A stretch of 64,000 bases of DNA from Armatimonadota bacterium (GCA_031363095.1 JANLTX010000011.1:26575-90574); one strand, 5' to 3'; positions 31,004-64,000 are shown, numbered from the stretch's first letter. Notes: generated by a model from the letters alone, not told the origin. A program made the numbers and translations.

Positions 31004-31004
31004 G

Positions 31005-36591: not shown

Positions 36592-36611
36592 AGTGTCATT
36601 GTATCGCGACA

Positions 36612-36647: not shown

Positions 36648-36666
36648 TGGGAGAACCCGAGTGCGT

Positions 36667-41797: not shown

Positions 41798-43219
41798 TCA
41801 GCGACCCGCCCCCAGCACGGCATCGCGCGTCGCGAGTCCCATGGCGACGGCCAGCGCGGGAGCCATCTGCGCCCGTGCATCCAGCGAGACCTGACGCGCC
41901 GTGACGTTGACCCCGGCGAAGGGATCGGCCACCACCGCCGTCAACCCGGTCTGGTACTGAACATAGTCCGCCAGCCCCGGAATCGAGGCAGAACCGCCGC
42001 AGAGCAGCACCTGATCGATATTCTCGGTCGGGTAGCGCGACTTGAAGTAGTCTATCGAGCGCTGGAGCTCCATGACGAACTCGCCCAGCACCGGACTCAG
42101 CGCGTAGAAAACTTCTTTCTGGCGGGTCGTCCGGGGGTCTTCAGGCACGGGAGCGGTCTCGGGTGCCAGGGCCGCCACAGGAGCCGCCTCGGCAGGCGCA
42201 CCGGGCGTATCGAAGGGATTGTCGTAGGAAATATCAAACGGGTTGTCGCCCGCAGGCACCTCTCCGCCTCCGCCTTCTCCGCCGCTGTAGAGCGAGGGCG
42301 GCAGGGGCGCGGCCAGATCGACATCGAACGGGCTGGAGATACCCGCATCGGTCGGCGCACTCCCGAAGATTCCGCCGCCGTCCGTCGGCTGGTTGACCAG
42401 ATCCATGAAGATCTTGCCGTTCTGCTTTTTTTCGTCCTCGGCGGCGTCCATGGGAAGCCCGAGTCGGTCGGCGACGGCCTGGGTGAAGTTGTCTCCGCCC
42501 AGCGGGATCGTACGCGGGAAGCGCAGAGTCGCCTGCTTGAAGATCCCGACATCGGTCATCGATGCCCCGAGGTTGACCACGACGACGTTCTTGTCTTTGA
42601 GGCCCTGGCTCGACAGGTTGATCAGCGCCCGCCCGACGGCAAGCGGCTCGACATCGATGGCAACCGGAGTCAGACCCGCCGCCTTGAGCGTCTCCAGATG
42701 CGCAAAGACCATGTCGCGCTGGGCGCAGGCAAGCAGAACCTCCATGTTGGGGTTGGCTTCGTCTGCGTCCACCGCCGGGTCGTCGATCTTCTGATAGCTC
42801 ATCTCGACATCGGTCGCGGAGAACGGGATGTGGCGCTCCACTTCCCACTTCATGGTCTCCGCAAGCTCTGAGAGACTCATCTTGGGAACTTCGATGACGC
42901 GAACGACGACCGCCGCAGCGCCCGAAGCCGCTGAGACGCACTTGCCGCGCGCCTTGACGCCGGACTTATTGAGCAGCGCCTTGATCGCCGCACCGAGTGT
43001 CTTGGGGTCAGACACGACGCCCTGGGAGATCGTCCCGAGCGGGGTCTTGTCGATCCCGAATGCAGTGACACGCAGGCCACTGCCCGACCCTGTCACTTCG
43101 ACGACCTTGATCGTCTGAGACCCGATGTCCAGCCCAACGAACGACCCGCCACTGGGCCTGGGAGCGCGGACTGCTACCGCCTTGGGCTGAGGTGAGGGCT
43201 TTGTCTTGCCACCTGGCAT
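41798..43219 (-). CDS. pilM: PilM (actin-like type IV pilus assembly protein) with ~90-aa acidic/Pro-rich insertion
   Basis: FVGLDIGSQTIKVVEV, VVVNLGASMTDV, VLLCGGSASIPGLADYV. The preferred start MPGGKTKP at 43219 is preceded by GGAAGGTGG. Confidence 0.9.
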   Translation of the reverse strand: MPGGKTKPSPQPKAVAVRAPRPSGGSFVGLDIGSQTIKVVEVTGSGSGLRVTAFGIDKTPLGTISQGVVSDPKTLGAAIKALLNKSGVKARGKCVSAASGAAAVVVRVIEVPKMSLSELAETMKWEVERHIPFSATDVEMSYQKIDDPAVDADEANPNMEVLLACAQRDMVFAHLETLKAAGLTPVAIDVEPLAVGRALINLSSQGLKDKNVVVVNLGASMTDVGIFKQATLRFPRTIPLGGDNFTQAVADRLGLPMDAAEDEKKQNGKIFMDLVNQPTDGGGIFGSAPTDAGISSPFDVDLAAPLPPSLYSGGEGGGGEVPAGDNPFDISYDNPFDTPGAPAEAAPVAALAPETAPVPEDPRTTRQKEVFYALSPVLGEFVMELQRSIDYFKSRYPTENIDQVLLCGGSASIPGLADYVQYQTGLTAVVADPFAGVNVTARQVSLDARAQMAPALAVAMGLATRDAVLGAGR

Positions 43220-43284
43220 GCTGCCACCTTCCTTACCATGAAGTGGGCCATTGTAACACGCCCACAAAATCCGTGTCAAGCACG

Positions 43285-43314
43285 AAGGCCGCCCGCACTT
43301 CTGCGGGCGGCCTT
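43285..43314 (-). other. Strong hairpin between the giant gene and pilM
   Basis: AAGGCCGCCCGCA-CTTC-TGCGGGCGGCCTT, perfect 13-bp stem. There is no good U-tract on the minus strand. Confidence 0.65.
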
Positions 43315-43342: not shown

Positions 43343-46300
43343 CTACGGTGCCTGTGACTCGAAGCGCGGAGCCAGGCTCTGCCAGAACAGATCGTAGCCT
43401 CGCGGCAGGGCATTCAACTGGTTCGGCCCGCCGATCACCCGCCCGGTACGCTCCCTCGGCGACGCCCAGAACATCCACATCTTGCCCGACTGAAGCTGCG
43501 GATCCGTGATCGCTCCTGTCACCAAATCGACAGGCGCGGGCCCGTTGGGTCGAACCGGCAACGGTGGCGCGAACAGATCGACGAATCCGAAGACCTGGCC
43601 TTCGTTGACCGACTTGGTCAGCGAGAGCGCCGACGGTCCGACCTGGCCCTCAATCGTCGGTGGCTGCTCCTCGATCATCCCCAGCCGGGTCTGCGGAACC
43701 GCCGGGTTTGCCGGAGTTCCAAACGCTCCCACGCGGTTCGTCCCCGTCGCCGGAGTGTAGATCGAGATGGCACCTCGGATCGGCAGCCCTTCGTAGAACG
43801 GATCGACGAAGATCTTTCCGGTCTTGATATCGACGTCGAACGCCACGGGCGTCCAGGCACCGAGCTGGACCTCGACAGTCACCCCGGCCAGCGCCGAGTT
43901 GAGCGTCACGAGATCGCGTGCTCCCAGCCCCAGAGTCTCGTTCTGGCCCAGAAGCGGGTTGCCCAGGTTGTCCAACGTCACCTTCAGGTCGATCCCGACG
44001 CGCCGGACGCTGCTGTAGAGTTCACTTCCCTTTTTGTCCGCAAGCTCTTTGCGCCAGAGCAGCCAGTGCCGTCCGGTGAAGACAGCGCCCAGAGGTCGCC
44101 GCAGGATGCTGTTGAAGCTGTTTCCGTTGGTGGTCTGAGCCGCTGTCCGCAGATCGGTGAAGGCGATGCTTCCCGTGTCCGCCGCGCCGTCCGGGGTGAG
44201 CCGGTACGCCTGCGGCTGGTAGGTCGCCAGAACCCGATCTGCGACTCCCGCCACTTTGACGCTGGTCGGAACGTCCACACCACGGAACCGGACGATGCCC
44301 GCCGAGGTGTCCACCAGAACCTGCAGAATGCCCGTGGGCCGCTGAATGTTCTGGAAGAGCGTCTGGCTCGCACTGTCCCACTGCCAGTTCGCCGCGACCG
44401 TCGTGACCGGAGGCCCGGCCTTGTAAGCAATCGTCACGACAGGTGCCGTGGGCACGGTCAGGTCGCGGTTCCAGGCGATGTGCCGGGAACGGTAGGCCGA
44501 CTCTCGCCCGAACTTCTCCAGCTCCTCGCCCGTGATTACAGGCAACGCCACCGGAACGAGCCGGGCGTTGAGACCCGCACCCGTCATCCGGAAGCGCGAC
44601 AGGAACAGATCCGGAGTCGAGGTGCTGCGCAGAACGCCTGTGTAGTAGACATCCAGCACCGGGACATTGCCATTGCCCACCGTCGCCAGCCGCCGGACGA
44701 CGGCGCTCGGCTCGGAGGCCGAGGCGATGGCTCCAGGAAGCTCCAGCGCCCGCTCCACCCGCCGCTGCGTGCTCAGATTGCCCGCATCCGGCGTCGCGGT
44801 CGGAGTTCCATTGGCATTGGCTGGAGTCGGGACGTAGTACAGCCCCCACTTGCCCGCCGGTCCGCCGTAGTACAGCGCCAGAGTCGTGCTCGTGCTCGGC
44901 TCGTAGGCTGCCCGCACCCCGTAGCGGCGCAGGTTCGGGTCGGCGTTCACCACGAGCGGCGCGACGCCCCCCGGCTGACCATCCGCTCCGAGCGGCGCGT
45001 ACAGGATCGTGTCGGTCGAGCTGCCGCCCGCGTTCGGGGTTGAGTTGATCCAAAGCAGGGTCGCCGCACTTGAGGTCGGCAGAACCTGCATCGCAAACGG
45101 AGACAGGTTCGACTGAAGCCCGGCCACCGTGCTGATCTCCACCGGCGTCGAGAACCAGCGTCCCTGCGCCGCCAGCGGATTGTTTACCGGAACCGCTGTC
45201 GCCGGGTTCGACGCCGACTGCCAGGTTCCGAGCGTCGCGTTCCACAGAAGCCGACTGAAGTAGAGCTTGTAGCTTCCCCCTGCTTCCGAGCGGACGAAGT
45301 AGACGTTGAGCGAGCCGTCGGCTCCCCGGTAGGCGGTCGGCGAGAGCGCCGAGGCAGGCCGGTTCGCCGTGGTGAGCGGGTTGATGATCGTCTCGCTCAG
45401 CGGGAACGTGTCCACGCCGGGCAACAGGCCGCTGAAGACCGTCGCAAGCGACGTATCGAGCAGCGGATTGTTCAGCGCAAAGTCGGGAATCTGGCCCGTC
45501 AGCGGCGCTTCTGAAACCTGGAGGCGCAGATCGACCGCCGGGCTGGTGTGTGGCTGATAGACCCAGTTCGGGTTGGCCCCACCCGTGTAGTTCTGCATCC
45601 GAAGCACGTTCCGGTCCGGAACCATCGGGTCAGATGTTCGGATGGGAAGGGTTCCCGGAGTCGGGTTGGATGCCCCCTGCGTGTTGAACCCGCCGTAGGT
45701 CGGGCCTGCCGTCGTCATCGCTCCACCGTTGAGAATCGGAACCGCGTTGTAGCCGCCGTTGGGCGTGTCGAGGTTCTCGAAGACCGCGAGCATCGGGGGT
45801 GCGCCGCTTACGTTGGACGCCGTGCTTTCGTAGATACCCGACGGTGTCCCGAGCGGCACCGCGACGCCGACCTTGACAGGCGTCGCCGTCACTCCGGCGA
45901 GCGTGTCGCTGCGCGGAAGGTCGGGCAGGCCGAGCACCGAAGGCGTCGAGTTGCCCGTCAGCGGTTTCTTGAGGGTGTGCCGTCCGTTGAACGGAGCGTA
46001 GAACCGTGCATAGTCTACCGGCGTGACCAGTGTCTGGACATGTGTCGTCCAGGCCGCGTCCAGGTCGGCATCGAGCGACGTGACGACGTGCGGCATGAGG
46101 TTCGCCGTCTGAAGCGACGCCAGCGGGTCGGCTCCCACCGAGAGAATCCCGAACTTGTCGTCCACGGCGCTGGACTTCAACCCGAAGTAGTAGAAATTCT
46201 GTCCACTCCCGAAGTTGCCCGAGCCAGGAAGCGTGGGCGGAGCCTCCACTTTCTGCGACGACCGCAGGTTCCACAGGTTGACGTTGCCCGTGTTGAACAC

Positions 46301-49300
46301 GGTCATCGGCTTGAAGTAGCTGGCATCGTAGGGCGTCTTGCCCGCAGCACCAAGCGGATTGAGCGGACCGGGGACGAACCCGGATGCGAACGCGCCGGGA
46401 GTCTGGCCGTAGCCAAGCAGACTGTTCTCCATCCCGAGGCCCTGCGGCAGTCGCCCCAGGTCCACCAGTGTGGGCTTGCTGTCGGTGGTATTGCTGGAGC
46501 CAAGCCCGAGGTCAACCGGGACACCTGCCCAGACCTCGACCTCGCGGTACGGCTCGTTGTTGTCCCGAATCCCGTTGTTGTTCGTGTCCACCCAGACCTC
46601 GGCCAGCGATGTGTACCCGTAGGGCGCGATGGTCGCGTTGCCGGTGGGAACTCCCGTGACCGGATTGATCGACTGGAGCGAGCGCGGCGCGTTGGCGATA
46701 GCCCCGGCAGGTGCCATGATGCTACTCTTGCGCGGAAGCTGGAGCGGCCCCGAGATTCCCCCGGTGAACGCGCCATCATCCGTCGAAGGCTGCTTGTATG
46801 TGGACGTGAGCGAGTGCATCGCCGCGAGGTTCGCGGGCTGATGCTGCGGAATCCGCACGGTCAGCGAGGCCGCGAACTGATTGAGCGCCAGCAGCGCATT
46901 GGTGTCGGCCAGCCCCACAATAGGATTGATAGCACCACGCTGGTTAGCAGCGATGTTCAACTGGCCGTTGGGGATCTGCCCGCCGCCCTTGGTCAAGTCC
47001 TGACCGCCCAGCATCACCGAGACGTTCTGCGAGCCGCTGGAGCTGGTCGTGGTGCCCGGAATGTCCGGATAGTCCACGCTCGACCCGAGGTTCTGGGTCG
47101 CCTCCGACGGATCGACGGGTCGCCACGGCGCGTAGGCCGAGGCCGCCGTGGGCCGAGACTCCCAGGGAAGCGGGTTGATGACGCCATCGCGTCCCATCCC
47201 TGTCGGGGTCAGGCGCGGGTTCGCCGTGTCTTCATCCGAGTTCGGGATCACGGTCGGCCACCAGCGCCAGTTCAGGTCACGGATAACCTTGACGCGGATG
47301 TTGTCCAGCCCGGCCTGAGCGCTTCGGTTCACAATGCGCAGGTTTTTCTGATTCGGCGCGATGTCCGAGCTGGCGCTGCGCCCGTGCTGGCCGTAGCCCA
47401 GGCCCACCGCAACCGGGACGTAGAACGTCGGGTCGTTCGCCCCGTTTTCATCTTTGAGAACTTTCTCAAAGTTCGGGTTCAGATTTCCCATGGAGTCGTA
47501 GCGGTTCAGCTCGACACGCGTGATCTGGTTGCCGTTGGCGAGCGCCTGGCTGAACTCGTAGCTTGCCCGGTCGGGGTCGCGGGTGCCGTTGCTGGCTCCC
47601 ACATCGGCCACCGCGCTGGCAGCGTCGCCCGGCCCCCCGGCTCCCGTGGCCGTCCGGAACGGCCCGATGCCGTTCATCAGCTTACCTTCAGCGTTCTCGA
47701 CGACTGCGGGGATGTTGCCCGTGGTCTGGACCAGATGGCCCTGAACCCCGAGCGGGTTGGCGACGAACAGGTCCGGCTCGACATTGTCACGCTGCGAGAG
47801 CGCATCGATGCCCGAGTTGCGGCTGATCGGCACGACGCCCGGATAGGGCGGCAGGCCCAGGTGGACGATGTTCGAGCCACCGGCCACCGAGACATGGAGC
47901 TTCTGCCCCGGCGTCTGCCCGGAGATGTTAATTTCGTAGAACGCGACACCCAGGCGGCTCGGGTGTGAGTTCGCTGAGAGCGTCCCCGCGCCGTAGTCCG
48001 GAACGTACGGATACGTAACGACCGTCCCGGCGGATGTCGGCAGATTGACGGTAGTCGTTCCGTTTTTGCCCGAGATCACCAGGTTCACCTGGAACGAAGG
48101 GGGCGGCGCAGGCGGGTTCGCCGGAATCGGGAAACCGGTGGTGGGATCGGTGATGTAGCTCGGCGCGACCACGGGGACATCCCAGATCACGACGTAGGCT
48201 TTCTGGCCCCACTCGTAGAGGTTCTTCTTGCCCTTCGCCGCACGCGACAGAACGTCGAGCGTCACGCCGCCATCGGCAGGAAGCGGAAGGCCCGGATCGC
48301 GGCGCGGTCTGCGAGGCGTCCCGGCATTAGCCGCCGCCTGGAGCGCGACGAAGTCCGCCTGGTCGAAGATATCGACCTTGGTGAACGGAACGCCATCGCG
48401 ATTCAGTGCAATCGGGACGTTGCGCGGACGACCGAAGCCGTTGCGCTCGCCCGACGGGAAGACCGGCGTGATCTCGTACAGAACGCCCAGAGTGCTTCCG
48501 ACGTACAGCCAGGCGACGCGGTGCCCAGCCGGGTTGACGTTGTCGAAATCGTCGCTGCGAACCCCGCCGCTGGCGACCAGAGCCACCGCACGCTCGGCGT
48601 CCGAGACGGGACGCTCTGGCGTGAAGGCCGGGTTGCCAATTCCGGTGTAGCCCGGCAGGCGGTACTTGCCCGCCTCGTTGTTGTTGCCCGGAGGCAGCGT
48701 CGGGTCGAGAGTCGTCGCGTAGGTTTTGTCGTAGAACAAGCCGTTCAGGTCGAGCGGGAAGCCGCTCTGCCCGGTGTGCTCGTCGGCCAGGAGCGGCGCG
48801 GGCACCGCAGCCGGGTTTCCTTCAAACAAGGGCCGGGGCCGGAAGTGAGGCCGGGGCGCATCGTTGTGGAGCGATGCCTGCGCCGCAGGCTCCAATTCGG
48901 GATAGTAGGCGAAGTCCACCGACGGATCGGCACCGTTCTTGGCACGCCAGGCGAGCCGCCGCGCCGTGAAGTCGGTGTCCAGGCTCTCGTGGTAGGCATT
49001 GGTGAACGAGACCACACCCGTGCCCGGTCCGCCCAGCCCAAACAGGCTCAGATGAATGACGTGCTCGGGGTTCAGGCGATCCAGGCTCCCCTCGACTACT
49101 GCCCAGCCCAGGGTCGAGCTGCCGTCTTCCCCTTCGATGTTGGCGCTGATCTCGTAGAGCGAGCCGCTCTGGCTGTCCGAGCCGTGGGTCGTCACCCAGA
49201 GAACCGGGTACTGATACGCCGTATTTTCCAGGTTCGCCGCCGGAGTGATCGTCGGATCGAGGAACGCACCACGCGTCGTGGTGAGCGGATCGTCGATGTC

Positions 49301-52300
49301 CTGGTTGACGTAGCGCGCTGTCAGGTCCGTGGTCGGTAAGACCGGGACGACAAGCGTCATGTTGTAGTAGAAGTTGGTGATGTTCCCCAGAACGTTGGTA
49401 ACCACCGGAGCATCGTCCGTGGGCAGAAGCGGGACGCTCGGATGCGCCGCGTTCACCTGTGGCCCCACGGTCGCCGGAACCGTCGGCAGTCCGTCAGCGG
49501 CTACCTTGGCGGTCGGGTTGTTGCGGTTCTGTAGCGGCCCGCCCGTGATCGTGATGCTCTCGACCGCTGTCGGGTCGTTGTCGAGGTTCAGAGCACGAGC
49601 CAGAATCCGGTTGAACGCAAAGGCGTCTTTCCCGCCGACGCGTAGCATCGGATTGACCGGGTTTGCGGGATCGTTCGGGTTCAGAAGGTCGCGCAGACCG
49701 GCATCGGCCACGTTCCCTGTCCAGAGCGGGCCGGGAATCACCGTGTCGGTCGGGAGCGCCTGCTCCTGCGGCTGGCCGCTGTCGCGGTAGCGCACCAGAA
49801 GCCCGGTGTCTTCGTCGATGTCAATCGCGTAGAGCCGCCCCTTGCCGCCGACCGCGCCGCCGCCGACGTAGAGAGTCGGGACCGGCCTTCGCGCCGGAGC
49901 CGCCGGACTGGCCGCCGTCGAGGGCGCGTTGCGCTGCTGGATAATCGGACGCCCGAAAGCATCGTACTGATCGTAGACCGGTCGATAGATCCACGACGGC
50001 GTCGCGCGGCTCAGCGTCCCGCCCAGAAGCGGATTGACCCACTGATCCAGCGCAAGGCCCGCGATGCGCGAGTTGGCTGCCGGAGCCGCAGCCGCAAACG
50101 GCGTCGAGGTACCGATGGCCACCTGGGGCGTCGGGTTGGTCAGAAAGTCGCGCCGATCCCCAATCTGATCTAAAAGAAGAAGCCGTCCAGTCGTGCTACC
50201 CGGATCGTTGACCGAGACCGCGACGTAGCGCCGAATCCCTGAGAGCCGGGTATCGTCCGGGTCGAGGTACGGGAAATCGACCAGCGAGACGCCGCCTTCG
50301 ATGGGTGCAAAGCCCGCCTGACGACTCGCCAGTCGGTTCGCCCCGAACACAGACGAGAAGTCCGGGTCTTCGAACTCGAATTTCTGGGTCAACTGGGTGT
50401 TCTGGTACGTATTGGGGAACGCCCAGCGCGGACGAAGCGTCCCTTCCAGGCGCTCGGCATCGACCACGCCGTTCCCATCGAGGTCGGTGGCGACCTGGAC
50501 GTTGTGGAACCAGCGGTCGTCGTTGAGGGCCGCCGCCGAGTTGGGCGCAGGAGCTGCGGCGACCGGGTCGCCGGGCGTCCCGTCGAAGACCATATTGGTC
50601 TCGTGGTTGCCGCGCGTGACCGGCCCCTGCCAGTCCAGACAATAAACTCGCCCCTCACCGCTCGTGACGTAGACGCCCTTGCTGCCCAGGCCCGCGATGC
50701 GCGGGTGCGCCCAGCTCGAAACGGCAGGCGTCGCATTGATCGCGCCGCCCTGGCCACCGGCCAGCGTTCTAAACCACCACTTCAGCTCGCCGCGATGGTC
50801 GTTCGCTTCGGTAGCATCGATGTAGGCAATCGCTCGAAGAGTAGCCGTCGGGTTGATGAGCTGCTCGCCCTTGCGGAAGCCAAGCGGGAGCGGCTTGCCC
50901 GTGCCGTCCACGCCGCTTGCTCGCGCCCGCGCATCGAGGGCGTACAGAACGCCGTTCTGGTTGCCCACGAACAGGCGCGGCTCTTGCGTCGCTGTGTTCA
51001 GAAGTCCGTCGTCGTCGGGGCGCTCCCAGGCGATGGTCGGCGAGGACGCCGCGTAGCCTGCGGGAACAGGAATCTCGGTCTTGAGACGCTTGCTGTACTC
51101 CTGGAATGTCTCCGGGTTTGCTCCCGTGGTTATGCGCGGGTGCGACTTCGGCTCGAAGACCCACAAAACGTTGGTCGTTCCATTGCGGAAGTTGCCCAGC
51201 TTCGTCGTGTCGGCGGCGTGCTCGAAGTAGCGGTTGTCGTTGTTCCCGAACGGGTCGAGCGCCAGAAGAGTCCCGTTGGGTAGCGCGACGAACGCCACGG
51301 GCATCTGAATCGCCTGGCGGATCGGCACTCCCGGTTTCGAGTAGCGCTCCGGAGCGGAGTCGGCGACGCCCACCATGTTGGTGTTGGTCGCGTCGTAGGT
51401 CGGCACCTGTGCGGTTCCAAAGACGCTGATCCCTGGAACGACGGTCACAGAAGCATGCGCCCCACCGGAGAAGTCGCCGCGTAGAAAAATCTCGTTGTCC
51501 TGGATCGCGCCGTCGGGGTTGCCCTCGGCACCGCCATCGAACGAGATCACATTGGCGATCTGATAGACCACATCATTGGGAGGATTACTGAAGTTATCGG
51601 TTCCGATTCTGGGGTTGCGCGGCCCGCCTGGCAGGTGCGTGCGGTCAGGGAAACGCCAGATCACGGTGCGGGTCGCCGAGTCGAGGCAATAAATGCTCGT
51701 CACCGGAATCGTCCGGGTCGCGTCCACTGCGCTGGGCAGGAAGTCCGTGCGGACCACCAGCACCTGAGCGTTCGAGAAGAACGGAATCTGGTCGGGTCCG
51801 TTGCGATATGCCTGATGGTTCTCCGCGTTCACCTGATTGGTTCGGACGCCCGCCGTGGTGCGCGGATCGATCAAAGAAAGCGGAGCCTGGAACAGGACGC
51901 TCGGGTTTGCCCGGTCGCCGTTGTTGACATCGAAGGCCGGATCGCGCGGATTATTGGCAAAATCGAACGAGTCGTTGGGATGCGCGGTGCCTGTCCCGGT
52001 GACCATCGGGTTGGTTGCGTAGTTCGTCCCGGCAGCGGGCTGCTGGATCGGAATTCCCGGAGGCAGCGCCCCGGTGTCTGTCTTGCGTCCCCCGTGCGGC
52101 CCGACCATCGTCGGGGCGGCGTAGTACGCAAACGCATGCTGGTCGAACTCCACCAGATCGGCCACGACAACTTCACCGGCCTGCGGATTGGTGTGCGTCG
52201 TCACCAGCTGAACCGAAGCGCGGGCCGTAACCCCAACCGTCGGGCCGCCGCCTATCGTCGGAGCACCTGTGTAGGAACGCTCGGTCACCATCGGGAAGTA

Positions 52301-53155: not shown

Positions 53156-53202
53156 AAATCGGCTTTCAAATTCCTTCGTCGCACGCTTAATCACGAAATG
53201 GT

Positions 53203-56200: not shown

Positions 56201-58230
56201 GGGTTGGCGACCGTGTTGGCGACCCAGACCGCGTTGGCTCCGACCGCGACCCGCGTGTTGTAGTCGCCCGGTGCCGACGGATTCTCGATGACCTCGTGGC
56301 GGGTTCCCAGCCAGAACGGAAGTATTTTGGCGATATTGTTGCCGGTATTGCTGTCTTCGGTAATCACCGGAACATAGAGCATGATGTCGCTTGTGTTGCC
56401 GCCGGAGCGCGCACCGACGTTGCCCGAGTTGCGGTTCCCTCCCGACAGATCGTCGAGGCGAACCACGCCGAGCGTCGGTGAGCCGGTTGGCGTGACATCC
56501 TTGGGAGTGATGGCGACATCTATCGAAGTCCAGAGCGAGACCATCGCGTTGGCCTCAATGCAGCGCACGACGCCATCGGGCTGAACCACATAGACCCGGT
56601 TCTCATGGAACACCGGAGCGGGCGCAGGTCCCTTACTGTTATTTGGATCAGAGATAAGACTGGGGGGATCGCTGGCGAGTTTGCACTGCGTGTAGGTTGC
56701 CGGGCTTCCTTTGAGAATTACGGGGTTTCCGGCAGCGATATTGAGCGGCAGCGGGTTGCCTGCGTTGTCGGTGGGCAGCGCATCGAGCTTGATCAGCGAG
56801 CCGTCGCCCGTGGTCACGAAGATGTAGTCGCGGTACGAGCCGCCCCCCTGGAAGACCGTCCCGAGCACCGGGCTGGACGGCTGGCGATTCGACGGATTCG
56901 GGATCGGTGCGGAGCGCCAGACTTCGTCGTACGGAGCGCCGAACGCGAGGTCCGGGACGCCCTGATCGCCCCGATTGAACGAGGGCTTGGCGTTGTAGCA
57001 GCGCACCGTGAGCTGGCCGTTGCTGTCGATTCCAGAGACATAGACCCTGTCGCGAGCCACAAGCGGCGCACTGGCCGAGTTCACCTTCGCGTCGGTCGGA
57101 GTCCCGGCCTGGGTGAAATCAAACGCGGTCGTCAGCGGGGCGCGCAGGCTCTCCCCCGACGTTCCGACACGGCGGTTGTTCCGGCGATAGGTATTGTTGG
57201 CCGCGCCAAGCTGGGTCAGGTTGTAGAGAAAGAGCAGGTCTTCCTCGTGGGCACGCTCCAGCCGAGCGCCGCGCATATAGGCTCCCGAGTTCGGGCCGGA
57301 CGCGACGTTGTTATAGGTTCCGCCCACATAGTCGTTGATCGCGCAGCCCGTGTCTCCACAGGTAGCGACCACTGTCCCGGAGCCGTAGCTGGCCGTCGCG
57401 ATGTAGGGCAGACCGCCGCCCACCCCGAGGTTCCCGACGACATTGGTCAGGATGCTCGGGTTCGGAGCCTGCGAGACATCCATGCCCGTTACCGGATCGA
57501 TAGCTGCCAGAGCGCGGTCACGGTAGTCGGTGTACTCGCCCAGCAGCGCAATCTGTGGCAAGCTCAAGCGGTACGGCGCGTTGAGCAACGCATGGCCTGG
57601 CTGGAAGACAACCGGAGTGCCGCTTCCCACCGCGCCCCGGCTGCCCTGAAACTGAAGCTGCTCCAGAAAGAACGGCCCCTGGGCGCTCATCCGCATCCCG
57701 CCGCAGTCGTCGAGCCAGAGCAGGCCGCCCGCGTCCACTAACTTGCGCAGCTTCTCGCGGTCCGCCGGAGAGAACTTCAGAAGCCGGTGTGTCGTGAGTA
57801 GCAGCGCGTCGAACTGGATCAAATCAGCCACAGCGGTCTTGCTGAGCGAGACTTCCCAGTAGGCCGCCATGTCCTTGGTGATGTTCGCGCCAAGCTGGTA
57901 CGGATTGTTGGGGTCGCGTGCGGTCCAGCGCGTCAGAACGTCCTGAGTGACGGTGCGCGGGGCGAGCGGGTTGACGAACTCCCAGCCCAGCGGCTTGACA
58001 TCTTTTCGCTGGTCAGCGATCTGGAAGACGTACGGATCGGGGTTCTCCGGCCCGGCAGCCAGCGTCGTGGGAGTGCTGTTGTCGATGGTCGAATCGACCA
58101 GCAGAATCCCCACCCGCAGGGTTCGCTTGCCGCTGGCGTAGGTCACCGCATCGGCAGACGCGGCGCGTGGCAACGCGGTCAGCAGCATCGCTGCTACGAG
58201 CAAAGTCAGAGTTCGGAGCTTTTCACGCAT
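53203..58230 (-). CDS. Giant (1675 aa) secreted protein with NHL-like propeller repeats, function unknown
   Basis: Signal peptide MREKLRTLTLLVAAMLLTALPRAASA. The N-terminal segment FDALLLTTHRLLKFSPADREKLRKLVDAGGLLWLDDCGG resembles a GATase1-like/DUF4159 motif (from memory). NHL-like YLIADTGNGRIVRA and YLIADSGNFRVIEV. Confidence 0.8.
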   Translation of the reverse strand: MREKLRTLTLLVAAMLLTALPRAASADAVTYASGKRTLRVGILLVDSTIDNSTPTTLAAGPENPDPYVFQIADQRKDVKPLGWEFVNPLAPRTVTQDVLTRWTARDPNNPYQLGANITKDMAAYWEVSLSKTAVADLIQFDALLLTTHRLLKFSPADREKLRKLVDAGGLLWLDDCGGMRMSAQGPFFLEQLQFQGSRGAVGSGTPVVFQPGHALLNAPYRLSLPQIALLGEYTDYRDRALAAIDPVTGMDVSQAPNPSILTNVVGNLGVGGGLPYIATASYGSGTVVATCGDTGCAINDYVGGTYNNVASGPNSGAYMRGARLERAHEEDLLFLYNLTQLGAANNTYRRNNRRVGTSGESLRAPLTTAFDFTQAGTPTDAKVNSASAPLVARDRVYVSGIDSNGQLTVRCYNAKPSFNRGDQGVPDLAFGAPYDEVWRSAPIPNPSNRQPSSPVLGTVFQGGGSYRDYIFVTTGDGSLIKLDALPTDNAGNPLPLNIAAGNPVILKGSPATYTQCKLASDPPSLISDPNNSKGPAPAPVFHENRVYVVQPDGVVRCIEANAMVSLWTSIDVAITPKDVTPTGSPTLGVVRLDDLSGGNRNSGNVGARSGGNTSDIMLYVPVITEDSNTGNNIAKILPFWLGTRHEVIENPSAPGDYNTRVAVGANAVWVANTVANPLPYFIRPKARVYDNRANMEAGIESLLYTNNAVTDAGLVQVRDGANNPPPPGTPLIVSVDYDLLYVPVGPGPGVPPGLAAGSDGSRPSGNGPALLISDYMGGLETTALGPDDIQFFAARASSGASGSGQTKSVFLGAREQFGIGATKLRQSFTVLENVGNIAVPMEFEVNGQTRTVIERATFRFPFSGFSPLGPGSSAGVLPENSVVPFVEVTPVGPPIIASETGVAYQLFRGTAGGNFTILAAFDADRDVTLRIKPYNPNAPVQIAQANGMTHPGDATNPVRTITATLSPNNGNNNVSNAVLDGDADAGRITIRNMVSQGGRFSSSQSFVVSYTPQGGTQPITEVISPSARLQTINNGVNDVADTASLPQDYNPLLWYYALPVTPTGAASRVGDMIYIPTQSGIVAVDSDPAATDPDVRAGEAVRNVFDSLTRLPGGTPINVAVNHVRWVQRLGDGAVPSVAAITAGPDILVANTLSPGAPATDWRGTFAYENSTTLIADSNRIIEVGGDGTPLWAMDGTVDSKTVGGAQPIFDPTQPPPPDLARTVTERRGLTRPSVARRLSSNDYLIADTGNGRIVRATRAAAIRQEINRLNDPYNVLEPTDPKSLNNPTDVQLYVQPTFDPADPFNLPVQGYEEHYLIADSGNFRVIEVVDYRDNQGRIRPNGEKVVVWSSKTYSKQGRKFSFKSVQRTYVTEGNVSGIPQLIAVIDNATASGGSASADFTGGSIVKLDYRPLNTLFVLRNATTGAVLPLGAWPVSGFPIQSGYPWPLVPATDEPATNGLVAQVVESFTFKAGTEITNPMTGATDTVTADYLYHVTRPTFFQQLTLRGGTGPNGIRVIYLICDANGVYQLEKDAGGVLVATWFMNKADYDRINRLRVSQAAPTADAIDPMELPKFHPVSAQRLPNGNILIANAASGPSGLFEDGKFRGEVLEVTGGLRFVQLPGVPEQPRFGNFATPSWSVKVPSAAPRRATVTQRMGAASATHPLEQPLFADRL

Positions 58231-58245
58231 ATCCGTTGTTACTTC

Positions 58246-61200
58246 CTACCGCGTTCTCTCGCCGGAGTAGATCATTCCCGGCGCGACGGGCAACCGGGGG
58301 GCGGCGGGGAGCACCCGCCCATAGGTATCGGCTCGCAGAGGGCTGCCGTCCGCCGCGTAGGGCAGCAGGAGCCGGTCGTCGAACGAGTAGACGATCCCCG
58401 CGCCACGGTCCAGCGGCCCCGCCAGGCGGGGCGTCGGCACCGGAAGCGCCTCGCCGCTCAGCTGCGGCCCGTGCACCGTCGGGAGCGTCCCGAGGGCGTC
58501 GTTCTGCGCCGGGTAGCTCGGGGCGCTCGGCAAGCCCATCGAACCCTGGTAGCGCGGCACCCAGCCCCATTTTTCCAGCCATGCGCCTTGATCGCCGATC
58601 TCGGCGGGGAGATTCTCGCTGATCGCTCCGAAGAACGTCAGCCGAATGTCCTGCGGCTCGCCGTGGAACGGATAGCGCGGATGAATCCGTCCCCGGTCCG
58701 TGGGCAGCACCAGCGCGTTCTCACCGTCGCGCCGGAGCGTCGGGGTGACGGTCTGGGCGTCGCCGACCATGTAGCGCTGATACGTGTCGTTGGGGTTCGG
58801 GTTGAGCCACGGCCCCGGAATGATAAAGAACGAGCCTTCCTGAGCGTACATCAGGGCTTCGACGCGAACATCGAGCGGCGCGATCCCGAGGCGGCTGAAC
58901 ACGTAGTCCGAGGTCGAGTTGGGCCGATCATAGAGAATCTTGCCCCGGTTGTCCTGGCCCAGCGTCGCGGGGGCCGTGAACGGAACGCCGTTGTTCGGGA
59001 AGAGCGTAGCGCTCGGCACCTGGAACACATCGTTCTGCCAGGCTCCCGCGCCCGCCGATCCGTTGTTGACGCTGTAGCTCGGCGTGATTGGATTGTCTAT
59101 CCCCGGCCCGCTCTGGTTCATTGTCAGAATAATGTTCGCGCTGTCTGGCCCGGCCTTGTCGGGCGCGTGCCGGACAAAGAACCGCTGGCCGAAGCCCGGT
59201 GGAGCGACGATGTAGCCCGGCACGACGAAGTTAATAATTCGTCCGTTGGCGTCATAGACATCCACCGGCGCGTTGGCGAACTGGTAGGTGAACTGGCTCT
59301 GCGCCGGGTCTGCGTTCAGAAGCGCCGGGCCTTCCAGCGGCGCTATCGACGCAGGCGCTTGCCGAACGTCACCGGGCTTCAGGAACTGGGTCGTGTTGAC
59401 CGTGATGTACTCGCGAGCCAGCAGGGCAATCGTCGAGCGACCGCGCACCCGCGCGGCGTCCAGGCTGGCATCGTTCGCGTCGAGGTTGTCGCGCAGCAAG
59501 CTACCATCGACGTAGATCGTCCCGCCGGAGACAACGGTGAGATGACGCAGGAAGTAGGCGGCTGTCTCGGCATCTCGCCCTCCGATGACGCCCCGCACCC
59601 GGATGTTTCCTTCGGCGAAGATCGTGAAGTCGCCCTGGAACGCGTTGGCGCTGCCCGTGATCGGGTCGGCGGGGTAGCCTTCCCAGCGGAAGTCGCTTCC
59701 ATTGAGATCGAGCGCTGTCGGGGCGTTGAAGATCCCCTGCCAGGGCGCGTAGTCCGCTGCCCCGATATTGGCCTGCGGCCCACGCGAGTAGCGAAGGATC
59801 GTCTGCTGGTTGCCCAATCGGTTGCCGTTGCGCGGATCGCGGAACATGTAGGGCCGCTGCGCTTCGAGGGGCCGGGTGACCGTCCGCTCGATAATCATGT
59901 ACCGGGGCGTGAACGTGATCGTCACGCCGGGCGGCTCGTACTTGAAGCCCGTCAGCCAGTTGGTCGTCCCACCGGGCGTCAGCCAGTCCACGCGCGGCGA
60001 GTAGGCATCCGCCAGCGCCGACGAGGGTCGGTTGACCTCGCCGGTGTTGGAGAGATACATCCCCGCTCCCCAGCCGAGCGCTCCCGGAAAGTCGTTGCCC
60101 AGCGCCGTGATCGACCCGATGGGGTTCGCCAGCGTGTGGCGAGCGTCGAGCGGCGCGGCGTTCTGGGTGAGAGCGCGGTAGCGGGTCAAGTCAATGGTCG
60201 GAACCGACTGCCGCGCGACATGCCGCAGGTTCGCGCCGGGCGTCCCGACTCCTGCCGCGTTGTCGCGCACCAGCCCGCCGAGCAGGTTGAACGACGCCGA
60301 GCCGCTCGGAAAGACATTGGGATTCGCAGCGGGTGGAATCGAGCCGGTCGCGCCGATGTTGGTCACCCAGGTTCGTCCCGGATTGAGCTGAGCCTGAGTC
60401 TCTTCGGCATCATCGATAGGTGCCTGCGGCGTGTTGGGCAGAACTCCGGCGTTGTCGGCGACGTTCGCCAGCGAGATCAGCCCGGCCACTTCGAGGGCGT
60501 CGTTGCGGCGCGGGTCTAAAAACAGGTAGTTCGGGCCGTAGAACTTCAGCGGGGCGTTGGAGCGAATCGGGCCGTAGTAGACACTGGCGATGTCGCGCAG
60601 GCGCGGCTCGACGGCCTCGATACCCGTGTCGGGGCGAGCGGCGGGCGTTCCGAGCGGGGCGTCTTTTACCTGAAGAATCGAACCCAGCCCGGCGGTCGTC
60701 GGGCTGCCGTCTTTGTTCGTAATATAACGGACATATTCGTTCAGGCCAATCGACTTGTAGCCGAACTTGTCGTAGAGCAGTGCTTTGGACTGGCTGCGAG
60801 CGTAGGTCGTCGGGTCGCCCGTCACGACGATCCCTGCGCGGCCCACGGCCTCCAGCTTGATGTACTTCTTCGTCGGGTCTGCGGCAGTGCAGACGCCCTG
60901 CACGGGAGTCTCGCCGGAGCGGCAGACACGCTCACCGGCCTCGAAGCCCCCGCTTCGGTTCGCATCGTCCCAGAGATCGCCCGGCTGACTGCCCGCACCG
61001 GAGTAGGGCCGATACGGGAGATAGTTCACCCGGACCAGCGCACGCCCACCGAGGTTGCCCACAGTCGGGTCGTCGCCGCCGAAGTTGACGCGGGTGAAGC
61101 CGCACGGCTCCTCCGGGTCGATGATCGACGGATCGTTGCAGCCGCGCAGCCAGTCGAAGTCCGGGTCGTTGGGATCGATGGGACCGACCGCGATGTCGGG

Positions 61201-61449
61201 CCGGGGTCGCCAGTCCGCGCCTTCGGGCGACTCGGAGAGCTGCCGGTCCAGATACTCCAGGCCCGCCGTGGCGAACTTGGTCGAGGCCGTCTGCTTGGCA
61301 TTGGTGCGGGAGGCTCGCAGGTTGTTGATGACAATCGCGATAAAGATCCCGCCCAGAAAGAGCAAGAGAAAGAGCACGCTGATAGCAACCGTCAGCGACT
61401 GGGCGGCCTCGCGGCGACGTCGAACTTTGTGGATCATGGCTGGCGTCAT
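58246..61449 (-). CDS. Large (~1070 aa) PilX_N-like membrane-anchored pilus-associated protein
   Basis: N-terminal single hydrophobic helix LTVAISVLFLLLFLGGIFIAIVINNL followed by TASTKFATAGLEYLDRQL (PilX N-terminal-like). The start is uncertain (61449, 61482 or 61566). Confidence 0.7.
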   Translation of the reverse strand: MTPAMIHKVRRRREAAQSLTVAISVLFLLLFLGGIFIAIVINNLRASRTNAKQTASTKFATAGLEYLDRQLSESPEGADWRPRPDIAVGPIDPNDPDFDWLRGCNDPSIIDPEEPCGFTRVNFGGDDPTVGNLGGRALVRVNYLPYRPYSGAGSQPGDLWDDANRSGGFEAGERVCRSGETPVQGVCTAADPTKKYIKLEAVGRAGIVVTGDPTTYARSQSKALLYDKFGYKSIGLNEYVRYITNKDGSPTTAGLGSILQVKDAPLGTPAARPDTGIEAVEPRLRDIASVYYGPIRSNAPLKFYGPNYLFLDPRRNDALEVAGLISLANVADNAGVLPNTPQAPIDDAEETQAQLNPGRTWVTNIGATGSIPPAANPNVFPSGSASFNLLGGLVRDNAAGVGTPGANLRHVARQSVPTIDLTRYRALTQNAAPLDARHTLANPIGSITALGNDFPGALGWGAGMYLSNTGEVNRPSSALADAYSPRVDWLTPGGTTNWLTGFKYEPPGVTITFTPRYMIIERTVTRPLEAQRPYMFRDPRNGNRLGNQQTILRYSRGPQANIGAADYAPWQGIFNAPTALDLNGSDFRWEGYPADPITGSANAFQGDFTIFAEGNIRVRGVIGGRDAETAAYFLRHLTVVSGGTIYVDGSLLRDNLDANDASLDAARVRGRSTIALLAREYITVNTTQFLKPGDVRQAPASIAPLEGPALLNADPAQSQFTYQFANAPVDVYDANGRIINFVVPGYIVAPPGFGQRFFVRHAPDKAGPDSANIILTMNQSGPGIDNPITPSYSVNNGSAGAGAWQNDVFQVPSATLFPNNGVPFTAPATLGQDNRGKILYDRPNSTSDYVFSRLGIAPLDVRVEALMYAQEGSFFIIPGPWLNPNPNDTYQRYMVGDAQTVTPTLRRDGENALVLPTDRGRIHPRYPFHGEPQDIRLTFFGAISENLPAEIGDQGAWLEKWGWVPRYQGSMGLPSAPSYPAQNDALGTLPTVHGPQLSGEALPVPTPRLAGPLDRGAGIVYSFDDRLLLPYAADGSPLRADTYGRVLPAAPRLPVAPGMIYSGERTR

Positions 61450-61468
61450 TTCCTGAACTCTCTTCTCG

Positions 61469-63598
61469 TTAGCGGACAGCATTGCCCACACGAACCTTGT
61501 CGGAAAACTGAATCGTCTGCGGAACCGGGGCGTTTGAGTCGTGGACCCGCGCTCCGATCTGGACATTGAGCAGCGAGCGGGTCGAGTAGTCTAATTTCAC
61601 CACGTCGCCCTCCGGCTTGAAGTCTCCGGTGGCGGCACGCTGGTCGGCGGCGTTCAGCGGATAGCCCTGAGTGTCTCGGGCGAAGTTGTTCTGCCAAAGA
61701 TAGCTCACCCGAAGCTCGCGCGGCTGGGCCAGGCTCGCGGGCAAACCGGGCGTGTTGGGGTCAGGGAGCGCCGGGGTTCCGGCACCGAGCAGGCCGTTGC
61801 CGATGTCAATTTTCTCTCCGGCGTCGAACCAGATCAGGGCGCGGTTGGGCTGGAAGAACTGGCTCAGAACATAGTTGCGCTGACCGTTCACCGGCGCATA
61901 GGGCAGCGCTGCGTTCCCGGCAAGCCCGGCGAAGCTTTTTGCCAGAAGCGTGGTTCCCACGGTTTCGTTGATCCGGTTGTAAGGCAGAAGCTGCGCCGTG
62001 GCGGACATCGGCATCTCCGGCCCCAGCACCTGCTCGGTGCCCGGCGCGATCATCACGCCGCCTGCATCGAGCACCGCGCCCGTGCCGTCGGTGTTCCCGA
62101 AGACTCGGAGCGGCGAGGGAAAGCCCGCGCCCAGCCCTGCGATGGGAGTGAGGGTGTCGGCGTAGTAGCGCTCGGTCCCACCCGTCGCCGCCAGGAGATC
62201 GATCCCCCAGAGGCCCTGATCGGGGCGGACCCCGAGAGCGCCCGCACGCGAATCAAGCGTGTTGATGCGCAGCACGGTCGGGACCAGCTCGCCGAAGTTG
62301 GCATCCGGGTAGACGCTCGGGTTCATCGGGATCACTGCGCCGCCGCTTGCCGGAGCGAAGAGCGGAACGCCCCCGGTGGTTCCGGCGAGCGGCGGGAAGC
62401 CGGTCTCGACGCGGCCACGCAGGGCATCGACGGAGAACGTGAGCCGGGGCGTCTTGACGAAAATCTTGCCGCTGACTGCCGAGAGCGACGTGAAGACCTC
62501 GTTCTGGAGCGTCGCGAGCTTGCCGCTACTGCTTGCCAGTCGGACGCGCGGCCTCGCCGGGTTCACCGTATTATCCATCTCGACGACGAACTGGGCGCTT
62601 CCTTCATTCGTACCTGAGTTGCGGGTGGTGGAGCGGAAGAACGTGACGGTGAATGGAAGAGTCCACTGTCCGTGCTGCGCCGAGTAGAGCGTTGGGGGTG
62701 CGCCGGGCGTCTCCGCGTTGCCCGCCGTCAGCGAGCCGGGCGTCGCGGTGTCGCCGGGCACTGCCGACGGCGCGAAGTAGGCCAGCGTCTGGAACGGCAG
62801 GTCGGTGATCAGCTCGCGGCTGCTATCGCGTCGCCAGGCAAGCATGTCGAGGCGCGGCCCCGAGATCACCGCACTGACCTTGCGCTTCCAGTTCTCCGCG
62901 AACGGTCGTCCGTTGGGCGCGACGTTGGTATTGTAGAAGAAGTTCGGATCGTTGAACCGTCCCGCCAGCGTGGAATCCTCGCCAAGCGGCGTGGGAACGA
63001 TCAAGTCCGGATCGTCCATTTTAAACTCGGCGCGGTAGAGAAGCACGGGGTTGAAGTCGGTGTCTTCCCCGCGAAACTCGTAGCGGTTGCCATAGAGCTT
63101 GGCGTTGTCGGCCAGCCCCAAGAAGTTCCGCACGACGCGCGTCCCCGGCGCGAGCGGGAACGTGATGTGGTTCCCTGTCAGCGGCTTGCCGGTCGTCGGG
63201 TCGATGGTGCCGCCAGGAGTTCCCTGGCTGTCGGGCAGAATATAGTCGAGCTTTGCAAATAGAATTCGCGGACGGTTCGTCGGCCCCCCATCGAAGTTGA
63301 TCGTCCGGTTCAGCGGAATCACCACGGCGGTTGTCGTATTGTCGAAGACGAACGTTGCCTGAGACAGCTCGCGGCTGATCCGCTCGACGCCGTTTCGAGC
63401 GGCGTCCTGCGCCGTCGCCTGGCTCTGCACCCGGTTGGTGATCTGCTGGGCATAGAACAGCGGATAGAGCAGCAACCCCAGCAGGATCGTAGAGATCGCG
63501 ATCACCACCAGAAGCTCCACCAGCGTAAAGGCGCGTTTGGCCGCTCGTCGCATGCTTGTTCTTTCTATTCTCGAACTCATCGAACTCTTTGCACTCAT
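61469..63598 (-). CDS. Large (694-709 aa) prepilin-type N-terminal cleavage/methylation-domain protein
   Basis: MRRAAKRAFTLVELLVVIAISTILLGLLLYP (class III signal peptide with Glu+5, and Ala rather than Gly at -1). The M1 start forms ATGA with the upstream stop, and the classical short leader would start at 63553. Confidence 0.8.
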   Translation of the reverse strand: MSAKSSMSSRIERTSMRRAAKRAFTLVELLVVIAISTILLGLLLYPLFYAQQITNRVQSQATAQDAARNGVERISRELSQATFVFDNTTTAVVIPLNRTINFDGGPTNRPRILFAKLDYILPDSQGTPGGTIDPTTGKPLTGNHITFPLAPGTRVVRNFLGLADNAKLYGNRYEFRGEDTDFNPVLLYRAEFKMDDPDLIVPTPLGEDSTLAGRFNDPNFFYNTNVAPNGRPFAENWKRKVSAVISGPRLDMLAWRRDSSRELITDLPFQTLAYFAPSAVPGDTATPGSLTAGNAETPGAPPTLYSAQHGQWTLPFTVTFFRSTTRNSGTNEGSAQFVVEMDNTVNPARPRVRLASSSGKLATLQNEVFTSLSAVSGKIFVKTPRLTFSVDALRGRVETGFPPLAGTTGGVPLFAPASGGAVIPMNPSVYPDANFGELVPTVLRINTLDSRAGALGVRPDQGLWGIDLLAATGGTERYYADTLTPIAGLGAGFPSPLRVFGNTDGTGAVLDAGGVMIAPGTEQVLGPEMPMSATAQLLPYNRINETVGTTLLAKSFAGLAGNAALPYAPVNGQRNYVLSQFFQPNRALIWFDAGEKIDIGNGLLGAGTPALPDPNTPGLPASLAQPRELRVSYLWQNNFARDTQGYPLNAADQRAATGDFKPEGDVVKLDYSTRSLLNVQIGARVHDSNAPVPQTIQFSDKVRVGNAVR

Positions 63599-64000
63599 TG
63601 AAGCTGCCTCTGTGTCAGTTCGCTGTCCATGTCCTGGATTCTCCAGCGTGCCTTGCGCGAGACCTGATCTTTCCAGATCACCCGGCTCTTGATCGAGACT
63701 CCCTTGATCGTCCCGACGACCCGCCAGGGCCTGGTGATGTCGCGGCCCGGCATGAACTTCGTCACGTCGGTTGCGACGAACTTCCAGTCGGTCACCCCGC
63801 TGGGCATGTGGTTCTGCTGGGTCGTCGGCACATTGGGCAGCTCCAGCTCGGTCCCCAGGGTGAACTGCGCCGCCGGAGTCCGCACCAGGCTTCCCGTGCC
63901 GTCTGTGTATTCGAAGACTGCCGTGGCCGATTTGTTCAGTTCGCAGTCATTAAAGATCAGATACTCGACTCCCGACTGGGTGAGGTAGCTGAAGTTGCCC
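63595..64000 (-). CDS. C-terminal part of an upstream gene of the same operon (5' end outside the window), function unknown
   Basis: The reading frame of ORF 63595..63885 stays open to nt 64000 in my translation (GNFSYLTQSGVEYLIFNDCELNKSATAVFEYTDGTGSLVRTPAAQF...). Its stop overlaps the next gene start. Confidence 0.6.
   Translation of the reverse strand, partial: GNFSYLTQSGVEYLIFNDCELNKSATAVFEYTDGTGSLVRTPAAQFTLGTELELPNVPTTQQNHMPSGVTDWKFVATDVTKFMPGRDITRPWRVVGTIKGVSIKSRVIWKDQVSRKARWRIQDMDSELTQRQLQ

Follow-up and report, generated by a model that had tools for sequence, protein, structure and literature searches.

What is the run of very large genes that lies directly upstream of pilMNOPQ in an Armatimonadota bacterium, and could its products form the tip of a type IV pilus? 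The run fills positions 43,343 to 64,000 of a 64,000-nucleotide (nt) stretch of DNA (GCA_031363095.1 JANLTX010000011.1:26575-90574; hereafter the window, meaning the whole of that stretch, numbered from its first letter) and continues past its edge. Completed with public sequence, the block comprises four type IV pilin-like genes, three of them several times the normal size, and two huge genes for secreted propeller proteins, and we refer to these genes as G1, A, B, C, D and E. We think it probable, at roughly 0.6, that G1-A-B-C-D-E serves the type IVa pilus of Armatimonadota as a greatly enlarged core module of minor pilins and tip proteins. An earlier note on this DNA had proposed the block as an undescribed system. 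No account of the cassette turned up in the literature searched, and it is apparently a real, conserved and undescribed enlarged form of a known type of system; the phrase "undescribed system" nevertheless overstates the case, because giant PilX-type tip pilins are already known in the HpsA-like proteins of more than 1280 residues and in ComZ of Thermus. What is new is that the pilins in the PilV and PilW positions are giant as well, that two huge partners unlike PilY1 accompany them, and that the arrangement occurs phylum-wide, usually beside pilMNOPQ.

In the list of open reading frames (ORFs) in the window, minus-strand genes follow one another without a break between 64000 and ~35000. Within it we found everything that had been described ahead of pilM from the sequence, namely a partial ORF and four large genes, as follows.

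63595..64000, minus strand: gene A, 3' end only; PilV-like giant pilin, which runs past the window edge and has 649 residues in its complete form
61469..63553, minus strand: gene B, prepilin-type, in the PilW/GspJ position; 694 residues
58246..61482, minus strand: gene C, pilin-like without Glu5, in the position of a PilX/GspK-type cap; 1078 residues
53203..58230, minus strand: gene D, Sec-exported, DUF4159 followed by PQQ-like and NHL-like beta-propellers; 1675 residues
43343..53155, minus strand: gene E, Sec-exported multi-propeller protein; 3270 residues

The lengths given beforehand for the last three genes (~1070, 1675 and ~3270 residues) agree with those in the list, and the junctions are as close as had been stated (at most 47 nt, or overlapping): gaps of 41, 15 and 47 nt separate A from B, C from D and D from E, respectively, and B and C overlap by 14 nt. 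The length of B is the point at which the earlier note needs correction. Its 709 residues correspond to the longest ORF, 61469-63598, but the likely start is at 63553, and in an exact-sequence database look-up the resulting 694-residue form was on record exactly, whereas the 709-residue form was unmatched; the prepilin signal claimed for this protein is present, scoring above the cut-off of the Pfam model N_methyl (PF07963; 26.5 bits versus 21.2). The product of gene C is identical to a database protein. For gene E, the start at 53155 (MMSLLRTS...) matches that of the closest ortholog, and the 3324-residue ORF is an unlikely N-terminal extension. Long plus-strand ORFs over the block, such as 45548-47968, were considered and set aside as antisense shadows in DNA of 64% G+C, as homologs exist only for the minus-strand products.

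The upstream end of the block was recovered from a public contig (L079) that is 100% identical to window positions 48246-64000 and extends 2496 nt farther upstream. The extension holds the complete gene A (649 residues), preceded by G1, a pilin of ~300 residues of the DUF1559 type, which in relatives combines N_methyl with a DUF1559/SBP_bac_10 domain. Because the genes 5' of G1 vary between genomes and lie on the opposite strand, the unit is taken to be G1-A-B-C-D-E, ~7,700 codons in all. In several Chthonomonadales and unplaced genomes (L037, L039, L040, L044, L046 and L070, in the first 2.7 kb of each) the DUF1559-type G1 is duplicated in tandem before A.

Full-length homologs of the block genes, at 23-75% identity, occur in dozens of genomes, and the genes are therefore real and selected rather than chance ORFs in high-GC DNA. 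Named homologs of C and D come from Armatimonas, Armatimonadaceae, Capsulimonadales, Fimbriimonas and entries labelled "Armatimonadota bacterium". We scanned one genome per species with a set of closer D homologs as the query, the 26-member D alignment being too diverse, and obtained 74 loci from Armatimonadia, Chthonomonadales, Fimbriimonadales and Capsulimonadales, including one metagenome-assembled genome of Chthonomonas calidirosea and one bin labelled Fimbriimonas ginsengisoli Gsoil 348; a close relative of the cassette lies in L077 (Fimbriimonas ginsengisoli). In tblastn searches with all window proteins, the order G1-A-B-C-D-E was identical in ~40 loci from four orders, wherever the flank sufficed. 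Sizes are held within limits as well, the homologs of A measuring 600-730 residues, those of B 650-820, of C 1000-1120, of D 1500-1760 and of E 2100-3330. A profile of gene C recovered 811 clusters at 50% identity among 1.84 billion representatives, and the best 150 of these were all 900-1200 residues long or fragments. With the C-terminal 1200 residues of E as the query, 12 proteins were found, mostly pieces of split gene calls. Gene E is divided into two or more ORFs in two assemblies (5437-13963 in L003/L013; 3875-14566 in L004), which could reflect frameshifts in long-read or hybrid assemblies or real decay. One contig labelled Sedimentisphaerales (Planctomycetota; L069, DATKWR010000502.1) carries homologs of C, D and E; misbinning of an Armatimonadota contig is a likelier explanation for it than transfer.

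Four of the six proteins begin like type IV pilins, and their N-terminal motifs, which are kept phylum-wide (at least 30 homologs each), are listed here.

G1: (G/A)FTLIELL; Glu5 present
A: (G/A)xSL(I/V)E(V/I)LVV; Glu5 present
B: (G/A)FTLVELLVVIA; Glu5 present
C: GQ-SLxVAxxVLFLLLF, with the predicted cleavage point between GQ and SL(I/T)VA..VLFLLLF; Glu5 absent (Val/Ala) in all listed homologs

G1, A and B thus combine Gly or Ala at the predicted cleavage site and a hydrophobic helix with Glu5, whereas C has the helix alone. In the product of gene A, the N-terminus reads QYG before the predicted cleavage point and TSLVEVLIVMVILLIGIF after it, with Glu5 in place. In 37 of the 38 members of the A family this N-terminal part, and only this part, matches the PilV model TIGR02523, below its cut-off (30.7 bits versus 52.2). 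For the B family the family-model search returned no match to PilW or GspJ. Published work on GspK and PilX takes the lack of Glu5 in a pilin helix as the sign of the cap subunit, for which the very tip is the only possible place; by this hallmark, read from the sequence, C would be a PilX/GspK-type cap pilin. The earlier note had seen a PilX_N-like anchor helix in C. The motif and a confidently predicted helix bear this out, yet the Pfam model PilX_N goes unmatched, and neither PilX_N nor GspK was matched by C in searches of Pfam, NCBIfam, PDB profiles or Foldseek. The AlphaFold2 model of C, built from a 69-sequence alignment, has a mean predicted local distance difference test score (pLDDT) of 86.9 and a predicted template modelling score (pTM) of 0.90; it places a 70-residue N-terminal helix (residues 4-73) before a large, mostly beta body. 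Compared with the PDB by Foldseek, this body gave weak, domain-level matches to jelly rolls, namely the carbohydrate-binding modules (CBMs) CBM36, CBM22 and CBM35 and domain III of Cry toxins, and, at low probability and below the CBM jelly rolls, matches to tailspike beta-helices. Beyond approximately the first 60 residues, A, B and C had no sequence match in Pfam, NCBIfam or the PDB.

Genes D and E encode the non-pilin part of the block. As had been noted, both products carry Sec-type signal peptides, which we read by eye in the window (ending ...PRAASA before DA in D and ...GLAWA before Q in E) and in all homologs. Among the relatives of D, 24 of 26 contain DUF4159, 12 PQQ_2 and 5 NHL. The N-terminal DUF4159 has a GATase1/GIFT-like fold with a weak match to IFT52, and the PDB profile matches of D are to PQQ dehydrogenases and BamB. 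Residues 476-1675 were modelled by AlphaFold as an all-beta structure (pLDDT 83.5), and the C-terminal motif LLEQPxFADR is kept phylum-wide. E matches designed and natural PQQ-type propellers at E = 1.5e-42 (PDB profile search); its relatives contain Golvesin_C (7 of 15), PQQ-type propellers (5 of 15) and scattered immunoglobulin-like (Ig-like) domains. Residues 1100-1500 of E form a variable insert, and its C-terminal region carries PD40-like repeats with the consensus FWxSTRxGTxDLYY, read by eye. Propeller motifs and EF-hand-like calcium loops had been attributed to both proteins; the propellers are found in both, but of the two proteins in the window only E has the loops (DxDxNG), one at residue 891 and one at residue 2190. 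Most D homologs have a calcium-binding-type acidic loop, DLDGDGN.DDG.PDL, which the window D has lost (NRGDQGVPDL, around residues 416-436). In profile-profile comparisons, the A, B and C families share only the N-terminal helix, and D and E share only PQQ blades, so that the giant parts of these proteins are not simple duplications of one another.

The earlier note had likened the block to the Pseudomonas genes fimU-pilVWXY1E. With these genes and their equivalents in Neisseria and Myxococcus (pilHIJK-pilC; PMC7541494, bioRxiv 10.64898/2026.09.18.752573) the block shares four tandem pilin genes, the last of them Glu5-less, a PilV-like N-terminus in A, large Sec-exported beta-propeller non-pilins directly after the pilins and, presumably, a role in priming and tip display. 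It differs in that A, B and C have 650-1100 residues as against ~150-300 in the known pilins, in having two non-pilins (1675 and 3270 residues) instead of one of ~1000-1500, in the absence of both the PilY1 signature propeller (PF05567/IPR008707) and an evident free C-terminal plug, and in lying usually directly upstream of pilMNOPQ. The proposed mirror image thus holds for the order of the pilins, the Glu5-less cap and the exported non-pilins that follow, and the several-fold enlargement of the components is as had been described, but D and E fall outside the PilY1/PilC family.

Work on Myxococcus, Pseudomonas and Neisseria has established a model in which minor pilins prime the pilus and form its tip (PMC7541494), and the block fits this model in its fimU-pilV-pilW-pilX order, its Glu5-less cap, its exported propeller proteins and its usual type IVa pilus neighbours. 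Applied here, the model would run as follows. The four pilins would be processed by prepilin peptidase, and G1, A, B and C would nucleate a filament on the PilMNOP platform as a priming complex with C on top. Having reached the periplasm by the Sec route, D and/or E would dock on this complex in the place taken by PilY1 in Proteobacteria; this tip location of D and E is the weakest step of our proposal. Polymerisation of the major pilin below would then push the assembly out through PilQ, domain by domain, to yield a tip complex of ~0.8 MDa that could bind surfaces or polysaccharides. The CBM-like, Ig-like and propeller modules, as judged from sequence matches and models, suggest glycan or surface binding, and a role as an adhesin is suited by the CBM-type folds in C together with the Golvesin_C and Ig-like domains in relatives of E. 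Fimbriimonas ginsengisoli is described as fimbriated and non-motile, with pilB, pilC, pilD, pilM and pilQ and six pilT genes (PMC4072686), and its fimbriae and pil genes fit a role in attachment.

A number of points weigh against the proposal of a pilus tip module, and they are taken together here and in the following paragraphs with the alternatives on which they bear. To begin with, the evidence for it consists of sequence and predicted structures. In the PDB profile search, A and B match solved pilins by the N-terminal helix only; sequence comparison finds no pilin fold in the globular regions of A, B or C; and GspK, PilX and ComZ are absent from the best 50 Foldseek matches to the C model. 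Nor do we know of any secretin that passes a protein of 350 kDa. Further, some Armatimonadetes systems were grouped with type II secretion systems (T2SSs) by phylogeny (Denise et al. 2019), and this reassignment favours an alternative in which G1-A-B-C would be the pseudopilus tip of a T2SS-like machine, and D and E its cargo, released to the medium or the cell surface. The order of the four pilin genes can equally be written gspH-I-J-K, with the last member Glu5-less, and D and E are exported by Sec, consist of several domains and resemble adhesins or enzyme scaffolds. Moreover, T2SS substrates are often encoded next to the genes of their machine. Nevertheless, the platform encoded alongside belongs with PilM/PilN (PilM_2, E = 1.9e-57) and not with GspL/M/C, and the A family matches the GspI model in a single member compared with 37 for PilV. 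T2SS pseudopilins are small, with no evident reason for heads of 600-1000 residues on a periplasmic piston, and fimbriae were reported on strain Gsoil 348 in the Fimbriimonas genome paper cited above. On this balance we regard a T2SS-like machine as unlikely.

The relationship of D and E to PilY1 is the second area of difficulty for a pilus tip module. PF05567, the PilY1 signature, was absent from D and E (at E <= 0.1), from 26 relatives of D and from 15 relatives of E (both at E <= 0.01). The folds nearest to the D model in Foldseek are generic tandem propellers (DDB1, Utp21, Sro7 and BamB), and PilY1 is absent from the top 50 matches. In the known system, the 12 residues at the C-terminus of PilC bind the cap pilin (PilK); this tail has no ordered structure in free PilC and plugs PilK/PilX by beta-strand augmentation (bioRxiv 10.64898/2026.09.18.752573). 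Unlike that plug, the tail of D is modelled as an ordered strand with a pLDDT of ~92 in the monomer model. True homology of D or E to PilY1 is accordingly rejected at the family level by the missing PF05567 and the Foldseek result, and the idea that the tail of D is a PilC-type plug finds no support in the monomer model with its ordered strand. Given the missing signature, the missing Foldseek match and the ordered tail, the likeness of D and E to PilY1 lies in gene position and broad architecture only.

These same observations bear on a further alternative, in which the filament would comprise only G1, A, B and C, and D and E would be parts of the envelope machine or its assembly, for instance a periplasmic scaffold or a BamB-type factor for secretin assembly. 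The propellers of D do resemble BamB and PQQ scaffolds, neither D nor E has a PilY1 domain or a free plug tail, and the genome scan, as a rough count, showed one cassette locus per genome bin. However, sizes of 1675 and 3270 residues, the variable insert of E and the CBM/Ig-type modules are typical of surface adhesins; D and E sit in the pilin operon and outside the pilM-Q unit; and the cassette is intact where pilM lies elsewhere. We consider such a purely internal role for D and E quite unlikely. If D and E instead belong at the tip, as we favour, they might constitute a new, PilY1-independent class of tip protein and, with the three giant pilins, the largest type IV pilus tip known (~0.8 MDa, with a 350-kDa subunit), a proposition that we put forward tentatively and hold to be rather doubtful. 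Were it true, the threading of a tip of ~0.8 MDa through PilQ would call for an unusual secretin gate or for a non-retractile, tip-heavy organelle specific to Armatimonadota.

Oversized tip pilins that stand in for PilY1 or add to it have been described in other phyla, the cyanobacterial PilX and HpsA-like proteins and ComZ being the closest precedents, and these offer both parallels and another alternative. Cyanobacterial PilX_EPS/HpsA-like cap pilins (IPR049774) exceed 1280 residues and have been proposed to replace PilY1 (bioRxiv 10.64898/2026.02.12.705559). Their pilin fold is interrupted by a large beta-solenoid, to be compared in C with the long N-terminal helix and mostly beta body of the model and with its low-probability tailspike beta-helix matches. 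The block has in common with the cyanobacterial PilX_EPS/HpsA and pilA9-12 (hps) genes a Terrabacteria-type minor-pilin set with a huge cap, and the N-terminus of B is HpsC-like. The cassette might accordingly be a counterpart of hps in which C would be the HpsA-like subunit and the pilins would tie the pilus to the secretion or recognition of extracellular polysaccharide, in the service of gliding-type movement. Matches to HpsC were obtained with 24 of the 37 members of the B family (best E = 9.4e-12), the CBM-type jelly-roll matches of C would suit such a role, and cyanobacteria, with their large HpsA-like PilX proteins, lack PilY1. The HpsC matches, however, are below the cut-off and span only the generic pilin N-terminus, and a search of NCBIfam at E <= 0.1 matched none of the 37 members of the C family to an HpsA model. 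In addition, A and B are giant too, the two giant non-pilins are extra, and neither glycosyltransferase nor polysaccharide-export genes were seen within or next to the block, in the window or in related loci; polysaccharide-synthesis genes are not attached to it either. An hps counterpart therefore seems to us very unlikely.

Another parallel is ComZ of Thermus thermophilus, which acts with PilA2 and is a tip pilin, encoded among minor pilins, that carries a large beta-rich domain on a GspK-like fold (PMC6561018). Like ComZ, C is an oversized, beta-rich and presumptive tip pilin encoded among minor pilins, but C is of ~118 kDa compared with ~60 kDa for ComZ, nothing like D or E is encoded at the ComZ locus, and ComZ, to which C shows no detectable sequence relation, is not among the best 50 Foldseek matches mentioned above. 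The uncharacterised Verru_Chthon cassette A-D of Verrucomicrobia (TIGR02600, TIGR02598, TIGR02599 and TIGR02596) likewise sets prepilin-type proteins beside one of very large size. In the B family, its protein C is matched by 30 of 37 members (N-terminal and below the cut-off) and its protein D is matched too; five members of the A family match protein B, and one member of the C family weakly matches protein A. All of these matches are confined to the N-terminal pilin segment and fall far short of the curated cut-offs (for B, 29.9 bits versus 256.5, over residues 8-68), and the phylum, sizes and number of genes differ; the Verru_Chthon cassette may nonetheless be a similar kind of module.

The last of the points that tell against a pilus tip module concerns the tie between the block and pilM-Q, for which the following features of the window are relevant.

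43285..43314, minus strand: perfect 13-bp GC-rich terminator-like hairpin, 29 nt past the stop codon of E
43250..43279, minus strand: near-consensus sigma-70 promoter, TTGACA-18-TACAAT (with TG), 11/12 matches, before pilM
41798..43219, minus strand: pilM (Pfam PilM_2, E-value as given above)
40944-41711, 40126-40935 and 39220-40116, minus strand: genes in the pilN, pilO and pilP positions, respectively
38440-39204, minus strand: STN-domain protein (STN, E = 2e-6; N-terminal part of PilQ, TIGR02515, E = 1.5e-9)
36667-38343, minus strand: secretin gene pilQ (Secretin, E = 5.4e-29)

The identification of these neighbours as pilMNOPQ stands for pilM and pilQ, both of which are recognised by Pfam. 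The proteins in the pilN, pilO and pilP positions had no match in Pfam, NCBIfam or the PDB (the PDB searches gave noise) and were assigned by position, by a single N-terminal membrane helix, by a PilN-type "VNLLP" N-terminus and by a PilP-type lipobox, LIAGC; in L003 and L004, too, these three genes come after pilM. At 43279, the TTG that looks like the start of pilM belongs to the promoter as its -35 hexamer, which makes the ATG at 43219 the likely start.

When synteny was examined, as the earlier note had suggested, pilM proved to be the gene directly after E in 20 distinct loci, the window and 19 others, spanning all four orders and persisting at protein identities down to ~25%. Against this, 8 of the 28 informative loci, each of these eight with at least 700 nt after E, have other genes in that place; they belong to several Chthonomonadaceae, one Capsulimonadaceae and two unplaced bins. 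With 20 loci for and 8 against, the linkage between the cassette and pilM is strong and old, yet not obligatory. Transcription signals point the same way. The hairpin after E (a 91-nt fold with a minimum free energy of -45.8 kcal/mol, z = -4.15) has strong equivalents in nearly all related loci, many with T-runs and the loci without pilM included; the promoter between E and pilM is present in its 11-of-12 version in 9 of 13 related loci and in a 10-of-12 version in 3 more; and a strong intrinsic terminator lies at 36616-36646, between pilQ and aroK. When related loci were compared, no consistent promoter was seen upstream of G1. Because of the hairpin after E, the promoter before pilM and the terminator after pilQ, the block and pilM-Q are most likely, as read from these sequence signals, adjacent but separate transcription units. 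This counts against a pilus tip module and weakens the idea of a single operon with pilM-Q; the functional link is not thereby broken. Spacers that combine a hairpin with TTGACA-17/18-TAnAAT between E and pilM were seen in L003, L004, L038, L049, L050, L054, L058 and L075, so that both elements are kept even in distant relatives.

The eight loci without pilM and the separate transcription signals could also be taken to mean that the neighbourhood is coincidental and that the block is an independent surface-adhesin operon using another route of export. However, type IV pilin signals are present in four of the six proteins and call for both a prepilin peptidase and a machine that builds type IV filaments, and the adjacency to pilM has been retained across the four orders and at the low identities given above. 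We judge mere coincidence to be highly improbable, and a minor-pilin and tip module of the type IVa pilus remains the reading that we prefer.

The physical question that this preferred reading poses is how a tip load of ~0.8 MDa could ride on a type IV pilus through a secretin. If the reading is true, most of the minor-pilin priming set, beyond the cap alone, could be expanded into large modular adhesins, and the role of PilY1 could be filled by unrelated propeller proteins, with a bearing on how tip complexes dock and on the size of load that a secretin can pass. Armatimonadota are widespread in soil, freshwater and hot springs, with few cultures and almost no cell biology, and the cassette explains ~7,700 codons of "hypothetical" genes per genome. 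As the cultured Fimbriimonas ginsengisoli and Chthonomonas calidirosea appear to carry the cassette, the idea is directly testable.

Several minor observations concern the remainder of the window. No pilD gene is present within it. The protein in the PilP position contains a long Pro/Ala/Gly-rich linker. The secretin is apparently split into a secreted STN protein of 254 residues (TIGR02515 positions 3-117) and, after it, a 558-residue PilQ with the secretin core, and this two-gene arrangement of STN and PilQ is also found in L003 and L004. The order pilQ-aroK-aroB, familiar in Proteobacteria, extends over 34988-38343 in the window and over 19551-23084 in L003, and in L004 (19687-24397) aroC is inserted. 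Farther along, a riboflavin run comprises ribBA (24938-26152), a lumazine-binding riboflavin synthase (26805-27518) and ribD (27519-28814), with a gene for a putative Uma2-family endonuclease (26149-26811) inside it. Between the rib genes and a PASTA kinase gene (33213-34985) lie two adjacent ATPase genes (28715-32135), one encoding a 782-residue, STAND-like protein with AAA_16 and TPR and the other a 376-residue AAA_22 protein; a PASTA kinase also follows aroB in L003.

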